Assembly (NCBI GenBank): GCA_964640295.1
Contig: CAZXFX010000008.1
Coordinates: 3,153 to 67,152, forward strand
DNA: 64,000 bases
Direction of reading: 5' to 3'
Source of the DNA: an uncultured Dehalococcoidia bacterium
GTDB taxonomy: Bacteria; Chloroflexota; Dehalococcoidia; Lucifugimonadales; UBA1123
Positions 9,291-57,686 of the stretch are shown piece by piece (the first letter of the stretch is position 1; the number at the start of each line of letters is the position of its first letter). The notes beneath the pieces were generated by a model, which did not search any database, was not told the origin of the DNA, and saw only the letters and a program-made list of their open reading frames with translations. Both the position numbers and the translations under genes were made by a program.

Positions 9291-9328
9291 GCTAATGGGC
9301 GCGGACTCTCATTATGATGGATGGAGAC

Positions 9329-9431
9329 GTATCAATTCAGTCGGCGCTCCACATTGCGCGAAAATCCCTTTCCTCTTGATGGGGGAAGATCAGGATGGGG
9401 GTAATCCAACCCATCCGCCAAACTGATACAG
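9329..9431 (+). repeat. Copy A of a dispersed roughly 100-bp intergenic element with short terminal inverted repeats
   Basis: GTATCAA...GCGCTCCACATTGCGCGAAAATCCCTTTCCTCTTGATGGGGGAAGATCAGGATGGGGGTAATCCAACCCATCCGCCAAACTGATACAG. It is near-identical in most positions to the copies at 28339-28443 and 38991-39092. Confidence 0.65.
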
Positions 9432-9580
9432 GCTCACAAGTGAACAGTATATACAATCCTCCGCCCAATTCGTATAGAATTGCGATTGGAAACCTTGGCG
9501 TATCGAGAGACGCGAACGCCTTCCACTTAGAAAGAGCGTCTATATTTCGCGGCTTTGCCCGACGAGACAGGGAGGAACCG

Positions 9581-28294: not shown

Positions 28295-28338
28295 GAGCGA
28301 ATTTTCAAGGCGTCCCTTGACGAGCGCTAAAAATGAAC

Positions 28339-28443
28339 CTGTAACGATTTAGTCAGCGCTCCACATTGCGCAAAAGTCCCTTCCACCTTGATGGGGAAAG
28401 GCTAGGATGGGGGTGATCCAATCCTCCGACAAAACTGATACAG
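28339..28443 (+). repeat. Copy B of the dispersed roughly 100-bp intergenic element
   Basis: CTGTAACGA...GCGCTCCACATTGCGCAAAAGTCCCTTCCACCTTGATGGGGAAAGGCTAGGATGGGGGTGATCCAATCCTCCGACAAAACTGATACAG. Confidence 0.65.
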
Positions 28444-28450
28444 CCTCGCT

Positions 28451-28486
28451 AAAAATCGTCGGGGTTGCGCGACCCCGACGATTTTT
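28451..28486. terminator. Bidirectional intrinsic terminator hairpin
   Basis: AAAAATCGTCGGGGT-tgcgcg-ACCCCGACGATTTTT is a perfect 15-bp stem that includes an A-tract and a T-tract. Confidence 0.7.
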
Positions 28487-28531
28487 GTATCTTCATATAT
28501 GCAAATACACCCCTAGTTTTCTGAAAGGAGA

Positions 28532-38909: not shown

Positions 38910-38990
38910 TGCCCGCCCCCGTTAAAGCTGATTCCGAGTGTATTAGCGGCGTAGTTCAGTGTCAACGCGAGAATGCCCCTTCCCATGAAC

Positions 38991-39092
38991 CTGTATCAAG
39001 TTAGTCGCGCCACCTTGCGTAAAAGTCCCTTCTACCTTGATGGGGAAAGGCTAGGATGGGGGTGCTCCAATCCTCCGACCAAACTGATACAG
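38991..39092 (+). repeat. Copy C of the dispersed roughly 100-bp element, with the clearest terminal inverted repeat
   Basis: CTGTATCA at 38991-38998 and TGATACAG at 39085-39092 bracket GCGCCACCTTGCGTAAAAGTCCCTTCTACCTTGATGGGGAAAGGCTAGGATGGGGGTGCTCCAATCCTCCGACCAAAC. Confidence 0.65.
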
Positions 39093-39126
39093 ACTCCCTT
39101 CCCATTTTTGCCTACATATCCTCATC

Positions 39127-39357
39127 GCGCTATGCTACAATACCCACAGTCTGAGAACAAATATACCAAACATATATACCAGAAGTTATCAACCAGTCCA
39201 CGCGAGCTCGGGAAAAACTCTCTGAACTGGTGAATACAGGTCTTTGCAGGTGAAATTCAGGTGGCAACAGGTGGCATAATTCACCTGCAACGCATCAGAA
39301 GCCACCTGCGCGCCACCTGCAGGCTCGCCAGAAGAACTATAAACCAGGGGATATTCC
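39127..39357 (+). repeat. Left arm of a long inverted repeat (partner 52514-52772); contains an extended -10 and a CACCTGC/GCAGGTG motif cluster
   Basis: TGCTACAAT at 39133-39141. There are six GCAGGTG/CAGGTGGC/GCCACCTG motifs between 39246 and 39319. The reverse complement aligns by eye over most of its length with 52514-52772. Confidence 0.7.
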
Positions 39358-39467
39358 TCACGGAATATGTATGAGACTGATATAGACTTACGGCTGGAAG
39401 ATGGGTTCATATAGAGCCTCTTTCGTTGTAAACTCAGCCCATACGAAACAACCAGACGGAGGCAAAT

Positions 39468-44454: not shown

Positions 44455-45303
44455 ATGCAATTTTGCATTCGACTGATGACTATTGCGTTTCTGTCCTCGG
44501 CGATCATATTCGTGGTTGCCTGCTCGTCGGGACTGACCGAATCTCAGGTCATCGAACTCATACAAACGCATTCCACCCCTGGTCCCGCAGGCGAGCAGGG
44601 CCCTCCGGGTCCGCAGGGGCCGCAAGGTGATGTTGGAGATACAGGTATGCAAGGTCCACAGGGTGAGGTTGGTCCGAAAGGCGCCAAGGGCGATCCGGGT
44701 CCGCAGGGAGCCAGAGGTGGCGCGGGGCCGCAAGGCGATACTGGCCCACAAGGTAAGACTGGTCCGAAAGGCGCCAAAGGAGATACGGGACCGCAGGGGC
44801 CCAGAGGCGACGCAGGGCCGCCGGGCGACACTGGCCCACAAGGTGAGCCTGGTCCGAAAGGCGCCAAAGGAGACAGGGGACCGCAGGGGCCACAGGGCGA
44901 TATCGGACCCCGAGGCGAAGAAGGTCCCGCGGCTAAAGTCATAACAGTTCCCAGTTTCTGGTTCATCCAGTCCTTTGACGACGGCGACACATATGCGGAA
45001 CTCTGGTCTCCGAAGAACACCTATAACGAGGCCATCGTCAAATTGTGTAGGTCAGATAGTATCTGGGTAAACGGTGACTTCTCAGATATTGGAGGAGAGA
45101 GAGTCGAGGTCGCCTACACAGGCGAAGACGGTCGAATTACAGACAGGTGGTATGTGTCAGAAAGTGGGGACGCCATATTCGGCGATAACAGATTCACTCT
45201 CACACTCGCCACCTCTGACGAAGTACTCCTGGAAGTTCCCGCGGCGGACTTTTCAACGATGTTTCAGACGTCGGGATACCCAATTGATAGGTGTGGACTC
45301 TAG
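44455..45303 (+). CDS. Collagen-like (Gly-X-Y) repeat lipoprotein with a globular C-terminal domain
   Basis: Lipobox VVACSSG, then 39 uninterrupted G-X-Y triplets, then a roughly 120-aa non-repetitive domain. Confidence 0.8.
44581..44931 (+). repeat. Gly-X-Y coding repeat with an underlying 90-bp tandem periodicity
   Basis: GGTCCGAAAGGCGCCAA[AG]GG recurs at about 44671, 44761 and 44851, giving the 30-aa unit [30 protein letters not shown]. Confidence 0.8.
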
Positions 45304-52111: not shown

Positions 52112-52360
52112 TTGCCTCCTGAGTTTTCTGCCTTCTTGGCAGGCGCTACGATTTTATTTCCCAGAGTCCAGACCGTCAACCGAGCCGTTCGATCTTTGAT
52201 CTGATGACCGACTGGGGACGAACCTGATATCTGAGAGTGGCAGGTGTTTTTGCGCGATGTTGGGTACGTTGGCGCACATAGCGCACTCATGTTCTTAAAT
52301 GTGATTATAGCATAGGCAAGGGGGAGTTGGAATGGTGAATTGAGAAGGGTGAATTTGGAA

Positions 52361-52445
52361 TTATCTGACGTCTGATTGGGGTTGAGCCTTCCGCCGTTGA
52401 TGCGCTGAGAGGGGGAAGGGATTTTGCAAGGTTGGTGGGACGTTT
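52361..52445 (-). repeat. Diverged inverse-orientation copy (D1) of the roughly 100-bp element
   Basis: GCTGAGAGGGGGAAGGGATTTTGCAAGGTTGGTGGGACG resembles the reverse complement of ...CCACATTGCGCAAAAGTCCCTTCC.... It shares the left flank GGTGAATTTGGAATT[AG]TCTG with the copy at 57507. Confidence 0.4.
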
Positions 52446-52513
52446 GCCTACCCCTATGAGACCTCAGCCATATAGGGGGTGGTGGCGTGGCGTGGCGCCG
52501 GCCAAGCTTATGC

Positions 52514-52772
52514 GAAATATCTTCTGGTTTATAGCGCTCTGGTGAGCCTGCAGGCGGCTTGCAGGTGTCTTCTGGTGGGTTTCAGGTGGAATATGTCGCC
52601 TGTATCCACCTGCAGGCCACCTGCAAAGACCTGTATTCACCAGTTCAGAGGTTTTTTTCTGCGCTCGCTCGGACTGGTTGATAAGTTCTGGTTTATGGGT
52701 CGTTAGTTGTTAGATTGGCTTGCGTAATTTACGCATATTTGTTCTTGGGTTGTGAGTATTGTAGCATAGGGT
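52514..52772 (-). repeat. Right arm of the long inverted repeat (partner 39127-39357)
   Basis: The strings ...CCACCTGCAAAGACCTGTATTCACCAGTTCAGAG... and ...GGACTGGTTGATAA[GC]TTCTGGT... and ...TATTTGTTCT...GTATTGTAGCATAG are reverse complements of the left arm. A roughly 30-bp insertion sits at about 52690-52725. Confidence 0.7.
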
Positions 52773-52879
52773 GGGGGGAATTGGGAATGGTGAATTTAGA
52801 ATATCGAAACCGAGTAGATTCGAACCGAAACGCCGAAAGCATGCTGATATTTGGAAATACTCGGATTTGAGGACCGCCG

Positions 52880-53932
52880 ATGCTTAAAGAGTTTGGACAT
52901 CTCTACCGCGAGGAAGTTAGGGCGGAGGCGGAGCGCAGGTTCAAGTTGGAGCGCGTCGGCTCGATGCCTCTCAGGGGAAGCCACAGCTATGTCTTCGAGT
53001 ATACGGGCGACGCCGCTTCTTCCGTGATACTCAAGATAACCCATAGCTCTCATCGAGAGACGCGACAGATACTGGGAGAACTCGATTTCACGAACTATCT
53101 TGCCGACAACGGATTGAACGTATCACGGTCCGTGCCGTCTGCGGTCGGGAAATCGGTCGAAACGCTGGAAGCCGATTCTGGCTACTTTCTGGCTACCGCG
53201 TATGAGAAGGCGCCGGGCGCGCTGGTGGACTGGCGCGAGTGGACGCCCAACCTGTTCGAGCAATGGGGAGCGCTGATAGGGCGAATGCACACTCTGTCGA
53301 AGGAGTACCAACCGTCCGACGAATCGCTGCGCCGCAGACACTGGCATGAAGATAGAGACTGGGAACTGGATTCCAGCGTACCCGAATCTCGCTTGGAATT
53401 TCGGCGTTATGGGCAGAGAGTCAAGGACTGGCTGCTCTCGCTGCCGGCGGATAGAGATGCCTACGGCCTTATACACTCCGACCTGCACCAGTGGAATATG
53501 CTCTACGACGGTTCCGAGCTCTGGCCGATAGACTTCGACAATCTGCATTACGACTGGTTCTTGTCCGACTTTACCACTGTCATCATCAATGCGGTCATTT
53601 GCCAGTCCCATAGCTATAAGCGCGCCGAGTACGACGAGTGGACCGGCGGTCGGAAGATGGACAGCGCAGCGTTTCTGGACTACTTCATGGAGCCGTTCCT
53701 GAGCGGATACCGGCAGATGAACGATATCGAGCCGATCTGGATTCGCCGTCTCCCTCGATTTTTGCGCCGACACTATTTCACGTTTTACGTGGACGCCCTC
53801 TGTGATCCAGGATTCACAGACCTCTCAGAAGAAGAGCAAGCCGCCGAATTTCCGTGGCGCTCGATGGCGCAGCTAGAGGAGGAAGTCCGAACCGAATTCT
53901 GGCGGCAGTTCGACTTTTCGAAATTCGCTTGA
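52880..53932 (+). CDS. Phosphotransferase (aminoglycoside/choline kinase-like, APH) family protein
   Basis: Catalytic loop LIHSDLHQWNMLY and the metal-binding segment PIDFDNLHYDWF. Confidence 0.75.
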   Translation: MLKEFGHLYREEVRAEAERRFKLERVGSMPLRGSHSYVFEYTGDAASSVILKITHSSHRETRQILGELDFTNYLADNGLNVSRSVPSAVGKSVETLEADSGYFLATAYEKAPGALVDWREWTPNLFEQWGALIGRMHTLSKEYQPSDESLRRRHWHEDRDWELDSSVPESRLEFRRYGQRVKDWLLSLPADRDAYGLIHSDLHQWNMLYDGSELWPIDFDNLHYDWFLSDFTTVIINAVICQSHSYKRAEYDEWTGGRKMDSAAFLDYFMEPFLSGYRQMNDIEPIWIRRLPRFLRRHYFTFYVDALCDPGFTDLSEEEQAAEFPWRSMAQLEEEVRTEFWRQFDFSKFA

Positions 53933-53996
53933 TTTTCGCGCAACTTAGGGCGGCGACTGAACTGAATTGATATTGGTTGCGCCATATATAGGGCAG

Positions 53997-57000: not shown

Positions 57001-57500
57001 TGCGGCGCAAGGAGAATCACGACGCAGGCAGGTCTCAGGGTCGGGCTTCGCCGACGCCGGCCGCGACGCATACACCAACGCCGACGCCAGGTCCCACGAC
57101 GCCGACTCACACACCAACATCGACACCCGCGCCTCAAGTCGGGGCGAACGGCTGCGTGGAGACAATAGTGGCCAGAAGGCCGGTATCAGGGTCGTGGACG
57201 TCAGAGTGCCAGTCTCAGGCCACGTTCCGCGGTTACGCGCGGTATTACACCTTCACGCTAGATCAGTTGAGCATCGTCAACATTAACCTGGAGTCTGGAA
57301 TTGACAACTACCTGTACTTGCGTCAGGGTCATAATGTGCGGTCCGGCTCGGTTCTGGAAGAAGATGATGATGGCGGCGGAGATGGGGATGCGTTCATCAG
57401 CAAGCAATTGCCGGCCGGGGATTACACTATCGAGGCTACTACTTACGATGAGAATCGTTCGGGTAGATTCAGGCTGGAGTTCTCTTTGCTGGGGCGGTGA
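54089..57500 (+). pseudogene. S8 subtilisin-family peptidase with three PPC-type C-terminal domains, interrupted by a frameshift at an A-run (about 55334-55340)
   Basis: Asp (GIIDSGF), His (HGTIVAE) and Asn (NSAGNSG) lie in ORF 54089..55444. Ser (GTSQASPHLAG) lies in ORF 55347..57500. The two ORFs overlap in different frames around AAAGAAAAAC. Confidence 0.8.
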
Positions 57501-57516
57501 TGAACGGTGAATTTGG

Positions 57517-57590
57517 AATTGTCTGGCGATCGACTGGGTTGGAGTTTGAGAGCTGAGAGGGGAAAGGGACTTTTGGAAAACTGTTGACAG
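57517..57590 (-). repeat. Diverged inverse-orientation copy (E) of the roughly 100-bp element
   Basis: AATTGTCTGGCGATCGACTGGGTTGGAGTTTGAGAGCTGAGAGGGGAAAGGGACTTTTGG parallels 52355-52425. Confidence 0.4.
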
Positions 57591-57686
57591 AAGCGAACGA
57601 AAACCCTACCATTTGCGCAATGACTGAACGACGCTGGAAATGCGCCCAGTTTTTCTATGGAAAGAGAACCGCAGGAGGCCGACCGG

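Follow-up and report, generated by a model that had tools for sequence, protein, structure and literature searches.

What is the sequence of about 110 nucleotides that recurs between the genes of an uncultured Dehalococcoidia bacterium: a mobile repeat, a regulatory or 5'-UTR module shared by several genes, or the gene of a small RNA? These options had been left side by side by a sequence-only reading of the window, the whole stretch of 64,000 nucleotides that we analyzed. Our answer, to which we assign a probability of roughly 0.85, is that the element is a MITE, that is, a non-autonomous DNA transposon of uncultured Dehalococcoidia. We see in it selfish DNA of an ordinary type rather than a novel RNA or regulator.

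Copies of the element in the window

Three copies in the same orientation had been proposed, and all three were recovered. Alignment over ∼110 nt delimits full copies on the plus strand at ∼9323-9435 (copy A), 28335-28447 (copy B), and 38987-39096 (copy C), and a repeat search of the window groups positions 9329-9435, 28341-28447, and 38990-39096 into one family (D3). The identity between copies is 80% for A and B, 89% for B and C, and 77% for A and C. With a profile made of seven full-length members, only about seven complete copies being to hand, nhmmer finds the copies at E values of 1e-30 to 1e-33: 1.1e-30 for copy A (∼113 bp, 9323..9435), 1.3e-33 over the full model for copy B (113 bp, 5'-GAACCTGTAACGATTTAGTCAG ... 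CCGACAAAACTGATACAGCCTC-3'), and 2.4e-30 for copy C (110 bp). A 25-nt core pattern matches the window three times, exactly at copies A, B, and C, against 0 matches expected from shuffles. The copies are intergenic, as had been claimed, and the element has no conserved ORF; the next start codon lies 85 to 372 nt away.

An inverted-repeat search added a truncated copy on the minus strand (53931..53972), which consists of the left inverted repeat and a small hairpin only and adjoins the stop codon of the ORF at 52880-53932; its nhmmer support is weak (E = 0.067 and E = 0.41). The sites at 52361-52445 and 57517-57590, previously taken for diverged copies, have to be removed from the family, since they resemble the element at the C-rich stretch AAARTCCCTTYCCCCTC only (E = 0.65 and 5.2) and form a separate two-member family with no relatives among the fetched loci. 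The sequence-only reading had overlooked the truncated copy, as well as the true ends of the element, its 9-bp duplications, and the known motif type of its center.

The surroundings of the copies differ. Copy B sits between the stop codon and the terminator, in the 3' region of an aminotransferase transcript. The perfect hairpin that had been noticed after this copy (28451..28488, plus strand) is confirmed as a terminator-like structure whose 16-bp stem is bordered by an A-tract and a T-tract (DNA fold of -17.9 kcal/mol, z = -7.4), and it was missed by a simple terminator scan. This hairpin belongs to the host locus and not to the element, whose insertion duplicated the A-tract shoulder of the terminator. 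Copies A and C are located upstream of the promoter-like block of the downstream gene. The -10 boxes suggested after these two copies found no backing in a promoter scan, which called no sigma-70-type site downstream of either, though the TATACAAT block downstream of copy A is conserved in relatives; this block probably belongs to ggt rather than to the element.

Ends and target-site duplications

The bracket CTGTATCA...TGATACAG, described earlier as a terminal inverted repeat, is real and forms part of a longer, imperfect terminal inverted repeat of 18 to 22 bp, 5'-GA(A/T)(C/G)CTGTAYCAANTTAGTCGG ... CCGACCAAAYTGRTACAG(NN)TC-3', which is conserved across genomes. The true ends lie 4 nt beyond CTGT and ACAG on each side (GA..CTGTA / TACAG..TC), giving an element of 110 to 113 bp with the termini 5'-GA..CTGTAYCAA.TTAGTCGG / CCGACCAAAYTGRTACAG..TC-3'. 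These boundaries are sharp and identical in different genomes. Between the left inverted repeat and the core, a small GC hairpin, GCGC-N8-GCGC (28356..28371 on the plus strand in copy B), is able to fold, and its pairs are kept in 5 to 7 of 8 copies.

Insertion of the element duplicates 9 bp of the target. A check for target-site duplications at the copy boundaries, as had been advised, gave matches of 9/9 at both B and C. The ends of copy B are set by the flanking 9-mer GCTAAAAAT, present at 28326..28334 and at 28448..28456, the right duplication overlapping the A-tract of the terminator hairpin. Copy C is flanked by CCTTCCCAT at 38978..38986 and 39097..39105, as obtained both from flank comparison and from a scan for terminal inverted repeats and target-site duplications (TIR+TSD scan). 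Among homologues in other genomes, the flanking 9-mers match at 9/9 positions for L001 (ATCGCTCAA) and L034a (AGCTAATTC), at 8/9 for L057 (GGCGTCTCC / CGCGTCTCC), and at 6/9 for L034b (CTCACGATT / CTCACAGCT), and comparison of the flanks at other offset pairs yields mostly 1 to 3 matches out of 9. The TIR+TSD scan, a generic one that looked for a 12-nt inverted repeat together with a perfect direct repeat of ≥7 bp, was positive at 8/183 cores versus 1/3000 random sites and recovered window copy C and L001 independently. The flanks of copy A contain no recognizable 9-bp duplication, and the left end of this copy is degenerate (GGAGAC-GTATCAA), with no clear duplication left; copy A is the oldest of the window copies.

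Orthologous loci without the element

Insertion polymorphism, another check that had been proposed, was found at two of the three loci. In L157 and L158, the carboxyltransferase is 95% identical and the divergent ECH/carboxyltransferase pair is kept, and copy C is absent from the orthologous site. The intergenic region measures 180 nt in L157, 145 nt in L158, and 558 nt in the window. Its flanks can be aligned, and copy C together with a second repeat is contained in the ∼425 nt that the window has in excess. In L161 and L162, ggt is 88 to 89% identical, the MFS/ggt pair and the AACAGTATATACAAT...CGCCCAATTCGTATAAACTTGCG block are kept, and copy A is absent from the intergenic region. L162 represents a simple empty site, and in L161 this point is occupied by another MITE-like insert, which has AGGGTCTTTCG/CGAAAGACCCT as its inverted repeats and lies between direct repeats of GGGGTGGACA.

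Neither empty site is precise to the base. A neighboring ∼230-nt repeat is missing along with copy C, L161 varies at the site of copy A, and deletion in the relatives is a formal possibility at both loci. The perfect duplications of copies B and C are stronger evidence than the empty sites. As an empty-site test for copy B, relatives of the aminotransferase were considered; the element is absent from them, yet each has another gene downstream, which makes the comparison uninformative. In independent short-read runs, contigs with a sequence identical to that of the window break off within the core of copy C, as expected at a multi-copy repeat.

Duplications and empty sites bear directly on the view that the repeat is a structured noncoding RNA, or a cis-regulatory module of 5' or 3' untranslated regions, in which a closing stem around three hairpins would act on the adjacent gene. 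Copies A, B, and C are all oriented as the downstream gene, copy B lies ahead of a terminator within the 3' region of a transcript, the RNA folds into multiple hairpins (z-scores of -1.4 to -3.4), and the minus strand forms a continuous 19-bp closing stem with conserved G.U pairs. The conserved A.C mismatches of the outer stem correspond to G.U on a minus-strand RNA, which leaves some room for structure at the RNA level. However, the target-site duplications and empty sites show insertion and not conserved regulation, close relatives possess the same genes without the element, the adjacent genes are functionally unrelated (ggt, sodN, carboxyltransferase), and the placement relative to promoter and terminator varies between copies. 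Rfam gave 0 matches in the whole window at gathering thresholds, in agreement with the earlier remark that the repeat was not recognized as a named RNA family, and at E ≤ 10 around copy B it gave chance-level matches to the neighboring terminator only. Furthermore, stem pairing in the window copies has decayed, and the two strands fold with equal quality, as expected for any palindromic DNA. Over 140 sites, the core is oriented without bias with respect to its neighboring genes, which are both on the opposite strand in 28 cases, both on the same strand in 26, convergent in 24, and divergent in 16. An attempt to derive a functional strand from wobble pairs was abandoned: plus-strand A.C pairs outnumber the reverse by 14 to 7, with the mis-registered L009 included, and this count stems mostly from 1 or 2 inherited positions and is not decisive. 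Given the missing Rfam match, the mixed contexts, the unbiased orientation, and the decayed stems, we regard the cis-regulatory and small-RNA readings as highly improbable.

A putative triplex-type core

The G/C-rich center of the element consists, in this order, of C-arm, loop, purine arm, 3-nt linker, and mirror G/T arm, with a 9-(5)-9-3-9 geometry. The main core in related genomes reads AAGTCCCTTCCCCC-TTGAT-GGGGGAAGG-TTA-GGATGGGGG-TGA (its arms are also given as CCTTCCCCC / GGGGGAAGG / GGATGGGGG); written as a single strand, the core is CCCTTCCCCCTTGATGGGGGAAGGTTAGGATGGGGGT. Homologous cores in other genomes have 9/9 Watson-Crick pairs and 9/9 third-strand triads, the third arm, when reversed, mirroring the purine arm via the allowed G.G, A.A, and T.A triads only. 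The cores of the window, all on the plus strand, read CCTT(C/T)(C/T)(A/T)CC...GGGG(G/A)AAG(G/A)...GGATGGGGG and are decayed. That of copy B (28379..28413; C-arm CCTTCCACC, loop TTGAT, purine arm GGGGAAAGG, linker CTA, third arm GGATGGGGG) retains 7/9 Watson-Crick pairs, that of copy C (39028..39062) 6/9 plus one G-T pair, and that of copy A (9367..9401) 6/9 plus two G-T pairs, with 8/9 triads in each case. When folded as single-stranded DNA, the window copies are weak (z = -0.9 to -2.3), and the intact L001 reaches z = -5.7 and -7.1. The window copies are old and decayed.

Six variant pairs of purine arm and third arm occur in the fetched loci, and each has 9/9 valid triads. The pair GGGGGAAGG/GGATGGGGG is present at 146 sites and the TM_ECO-type pair GGGAGAGGG/GGGTGAGGG at 23 sites, the remaining four being GGGGGAGGG/GGGTGGGGG, GGGAGAGGA/AGGTGAGGG, GGGAGGGAG/GAGGGAGGG, and GGGGGAGGA/AGGTGGGGG. 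As judged from the arms themselves, these variants are three-way covariation of the kind predicted by the triplex model.

In E. coli, Holder et al. (NAR, 2015) described the BoxC/PIT/TM_ECO motif as CCCTCNCCC-N3-6-GGGNGAGGG-N3-GGGNGAGGG, a hairpin followed by a G-rich third arm that forms an intrastrand purine-motif triplex in vitro (PMC4666352; earlier work by Hoyne/Maher and by Bachellier is cited therein). The ITxF class II criteria specify pyrimidine, purine, and third G/A/T blocks, with 6- to 15-nt stems, at most one mismatch, and 1- to 6-nt loops (PMC4666352); the family consensus and the copies elsewhere fall within them, and the three window copies, with 6 to 7 of 9 pairs and 8/9 triads, fall outside. 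The exact TM_ECO pattern is not matched by the window cores and, within this scaffold, fits only the variant copy L042, a partial copy in which the same scaffold harbors the exact E. coli-type core CCCTCTCCC/GGGAGAGGG/GGGTGAGGG. By its primary sequence, the core is assigned to the known BoxC/PIT/TM class of intrastrand-triplex motifs, here in a new host group. A fold-back structure of very high stability is probably what it confers on the element.

Distribution in other genomes

A scan with the core pattern, one genome per species, found at least 119 stretches. Among the core matches listed, almost all come from Dehalococcoidia, SAR202, or Chloroflexota MAGs, and a few from Terriglobia, a betaproteobacterium, Methylophaga, Geopsychrobacteraceae, and one unclassified MAG. 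The names of the MAGs suggest that the host group is marine or sponge associated. In the fetched loci, nhmmer yielded 249 further matches, most of them over the central ∼41 to 46 nt only. Full-length homologues exist in at least four other Dehalococcoidia genomes, as L001 and L009 (DAOULF01), two copies in L034 (CBDBCD01), and L057 (OY764155.1), and partial copies were found in L065, L042, and L049 (OY762634.1), L107 (CBDBCD01), and L025. The genes that flank the copies in other genomes are unrelated.

The core, which is very abundant in Dehalococcoidia MAGs, is also found outside the present element. It is contained in a 102-bp scaffold (GAGAAAATTGCATTAG..) with inverted repeats and 7- to 8-bp duplications, in a 155-bp scaffold (CAGGGTCTTTCGATT..) with inverted repeats and a 10-bp duplication, and in a ∼128-bp unit (GAGACCTTTGCATAACC..) that forms tandem arrays. 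Stand-alone cores number in the hundreds, and others are in tandem or mixed with other palindromic units. Clustering of the core flanks as a way to count scaffold families was confounded by neighboring repeat modules and was replaced by the direct TIR+TSD scan.

A scan of JGI metagenomes with TTAGTCGGN{18,28}TCCCTTCCCCC returned 24 matches, none of which is the element, which is rare or absent in these metagenomes; neither the core nor the inverted repeat is present in IMG/VR. The core was not found in plasmid and phage collections, a result to which a low-complexity filter may contribute. Among the papers searched, nothing relevant was found on MITEs in Chloroflexi, SAR202, and sponge symbionts.

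The abundance of isolated cores raises a second alternative, namely, a REP/BIME- or BoxC-like structural repeat that would be spread by a REP-associated tyrosine transposase (RAYT), or by recombination or replication slippage, instead of by a DDE-type transposase. The core has a BoxC/PIT-type motif and exists alone, in tandem, and in BIME-like mosaics with other palindromic units; hairpin-only units differ in tandem copy number between L007 and L050, and ∼90% of the cores have no inverted repeats or duplications detectable by the TIR+TSD scan. Spread of the REP/RAYT type may well apply to these stand-alone cores. For the ∼110-bp element, with its terminal inverted repeats, perfect 9-bp duplications, and boundaries that are sharp and constant across genomes, we consider this alternative less probable still than an RNA. 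Neither inverted repeats at the termini nor such duplications are known to accompany the dispersal of REP/REPIN sequences.

Least probable of all is a domesticated MITE whose core would serve the host as a transcript-end hairpin, an insulator between divergent promoters, or a portable ribosome-binding site: its 3' end, GGGGGUGA, resembles a Shine-Dalgarno sequence, several cores lie 3 to 8 nt before start codons and directly after the preceding stop codon (the L007/L050 E2 gene, L013, L062, L044, L022, and L093), and start-codon offsets in the sense orientation cluster at 6 to 11 nt (14/18), but a start codon just downstream is no commoner than at random intergenic sites, the orientation is unbiased, and the window copies have decayed cores and are 85 to 372 nt from the next start codon. 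As a general function, a portable Shine-Dalgarno or intercistronic element based on the core 3' end GGGGGTGA was rejected, as 12.9% of cores have a start codon within 18 nt versus 15.7% of random intergenic sites.

Mobilization and spread of the core

The element is small and noncoding, ends in inverted repeats, is flanked by target-site duplications of 9 bp, occurs as dispersed copies, and is missing from orthologous sites in relatives. These features define a MITE, and this is how we read it. Its size of 110 to 113 bp lies below 500 bp, the length of the duplication is fixed at 9 bp, and presence or absence varies at orthologous sites. The MITE-like option of the sequence-only reading has thus been borne out by inverted repeats, duplications, empty sites, and homologues in at least four other Dehalococcoidia genomes.

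Neither an autonomous element sharing the inverted repeats nor a candidate transposase was found in the window or in ∼1 Mb of related loci, where the inverted repeat matched nothing beyond the short copies, so mobilization in trans is something that we infer only. Our working model is that a transposase encoded elsewhere in the genome would bind the inverted repeats, make a 9-bp staggered cut at the target, and integrate the element. The 9-bp duplication and the "GA" termini would presumably fit IS256-, IS4-, or IS903-like enzymes, which we take as a lead. Any effects on ggt, sodN, and the carboxyltransferase would most likely be neutral by-products of the landing place.

The core appears to be a module that this element has in common with stand-alone sites and with two or more further scaffolds bearing inverted repeats and duplications. 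In all, at least three different inverted-repeat scaffolds, whose duplications measure 7 to 8, 9, and 10 bp, contain the same ∼40-nt core, and a single scaffold can exchange one core type for another. We know of no means by which BoxC/PIT-type intrastrand-triplex motifs spread. A tentative proposal, which we hold to be unlikely though far from negligible, is that such motifs spread as an exchangeable cargo module of MITEs. If this were general, the triplex or fold-back might itself be selected, by aiding transposition or persistence, and the near-identical cores in Terriglobia, Beta- and Gammaproteobacteria, and Geopsychrobacteraceae would reflect horizontal spread of such elements.

The element also has practical consequences. 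Insertions of ∼110 bp, together with the more numerous stand-alone cores, break short-read assemblies, and both can create spurious ORFs or misleading "conserved upstream motifs" in the annotation of Dehalococcoidia MAGs. Recognizing the element guards against over-reading it as a riboswitch or sRNA, and its insertions can serve to mark strains or lineages among these uncultured bacteria.

Comparison with known systems

Bacterial MITEs include Correia/NEMIS in Neisseria, RUP in S. pneumoniae, ERIC/IRU in enterobacteria, and Nezha in cyanobacteria. Like these, the element is a noncoding, intergenic, multicopy sequence in the ∼100- to 150-bp range that ends in inverted repeats, is flanked by target-site duplications, adopts a long stem-loop fold, and is present or absent between relatives. 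It differs from the known bacterial MITEs by the sequence of its inverted repeats and by its triplex-type interior, and from Correia and RUP by its 9-bp duplication, theirs being the TA dinucleotide.

The stand-alone cores resemble REP, REPIN, and BIME sequences, which RAYT transposases mobilize: both are GC-rich palindromes of short length, located outside genes, very abundant, and arranged singly, in tandem, or in mosaics. The ∼110-bp element stands apart by its terminal inverted repeats and its 9-bp duplications; neither a RAYT gene nor a conserved 5' GTAG-type tetranucleotide came to notice.

The closest relationship of the core is to BoxC/PIT/TM_ECO. Both have a 9-nt C-rich arm, a 3- to 6-nt loop, a 9-nt purine arm, a 3-nt linker (TTA/CTA), and a 9-nt mirror G/T arm, and both are intergenic, without strand bias, and very highly conserved. 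In contrast to TM_ECO, the main core CCTTCCCCC / GGGGGAAGG / GGATGGGGG lies outside the TM_ECO pattern, and its hosts are Dehalococcoidia and not Proteobacteria. The E. coli study reported no link of the motif to mobile elements (PMC4666352), whereas the motif resides here within a transposon-like shell with inverted repeats and 9-bp duplications. The element therefore provides a concrete case of a BoxC/PIT-like, triplex-type motif traveling inside a transposon with clear target-site duplications, and it bears on how such motifs reach high copy number and why the loci that carry them are unstable, a question raised in that study (PMC4666352). The repeat is a new family within a well-known kind of element, and the motif inside it is likewise of a known kind.

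Other repeats in the window

Two segments that the sequence-only reading had taken for diverged copies of the MITE, D1 (52338-52449, minus strand) and D2 (57495-57599, minus strand), are the two members of a distinct ~90-110-nt repeat, which reads GGTGAATTTGGAATTRTCTG...CTGAGAGGGGRAAGGGAYTTT on the plus strand and has only the C-rich arm in common with the MITE core. Inspection by eye revealed no evident inverted repeats or duplications in this repeat, and no relatives of it were found among the loci fetched from related genomes. A coding region at window 44455-45303, unrelated to the MITE finding, carries collagen-like triplet repeats (GGN-CCN) that recur every 90 nt and were grouped as families D2 and D4 by the repeat search.

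D1 lies, together with the second copy of a longer repeat, in the segment between two 27-nt direct repeats, GGGGGAGTTGGAATGGTGAATTGAGAA and GGGGAATTGGGAATGGTGAATTTAGAA (52320-52346 and 52775-52801), which are 85% identical and spaced by 455 nt; a related unit, GGTGAATT, occurs again at 52334-52360. The longer repeat, of ~230-260 nt, is present in the window at 39130-39359 (plus strand) and 52513-52769 (minus strand), the two copies being 83% identical, with a further copy in a related genome (L049:349-552) and a weak one in another (L057:3248-3378). It starts with GCTATGCTACAAT, an extended -10-like TGnTACAAT, continues into a long nested hairpin with CAGGTG units in one arm and CACCTG units in the other, and ends near CTATAAACC. 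A MITE copy is found 34-85 nt upstream of the repeat, both in the window and in L057, and the genes downstream of the copies are unrelated. The repeat is missing from the orthologous site of L157 and L158, two relatives with the same ECH/carboxyltransferase gene pair, and has no Rfam match. It could be either a mobile element carrying a promoter or an ncRNA gene.

The triplex core and MITE-like insertions in relatives

Two syntenic genomes that are 85% identical contain, at L007:4870-5420 and L050:1300-1860, hairpin-only units devoid of the third arm just upstream of a gene for an E2 lipoyl-domain protein, with a tandem copy number of 1 versus 2 in this comparison. A complete core is present within the E2 linker region in L007 and absent in L050; the consensus core has stop codons in all three frames and an ATG. 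Tandem arrays of a ~255-277-nt unit were found in L045 (900-3800, at least six consecutive units) and in L070 (CBDCOP010000007.1), each unit containing a ~128-bp palindromic scaffold, GAGACCTTTGCATAACC...GGTTATGCAAAGGTCTC, around the triplex core common to the MITE. In another relative, L124, the aminotransferase orthologue is preceded at a distance of ~1.7 kb by an IS110-family transposase gene (278-1261; DEDD_Tnp_IS110 and Transposase_20 domains), with no link to the MITE seen.

In L161 (OY762634.1), a relative with the same MFS/ggt gene pair, a different MITE-like insertion (~2275-2400, orthologous to window ~9320-9440) occupies the intergenic spot of window copy A. It has inverted repeats AGGGTCTTTCG/CGAAAGACCCT, is flanked by direct repeats GGGGTGGACA, and bears a palindromic module of the CCCTTCGACAAGCTCAGGGCGAACG type where the triplex core would be; in L053 and L060, this same inverted-repeat scaffold encloses the triplex core. 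The presence of another MITE-like insertion at the copy A spot, and of either module within one scaffold, suggests that these MITEs are modular and that the site is an insertion hot spot.
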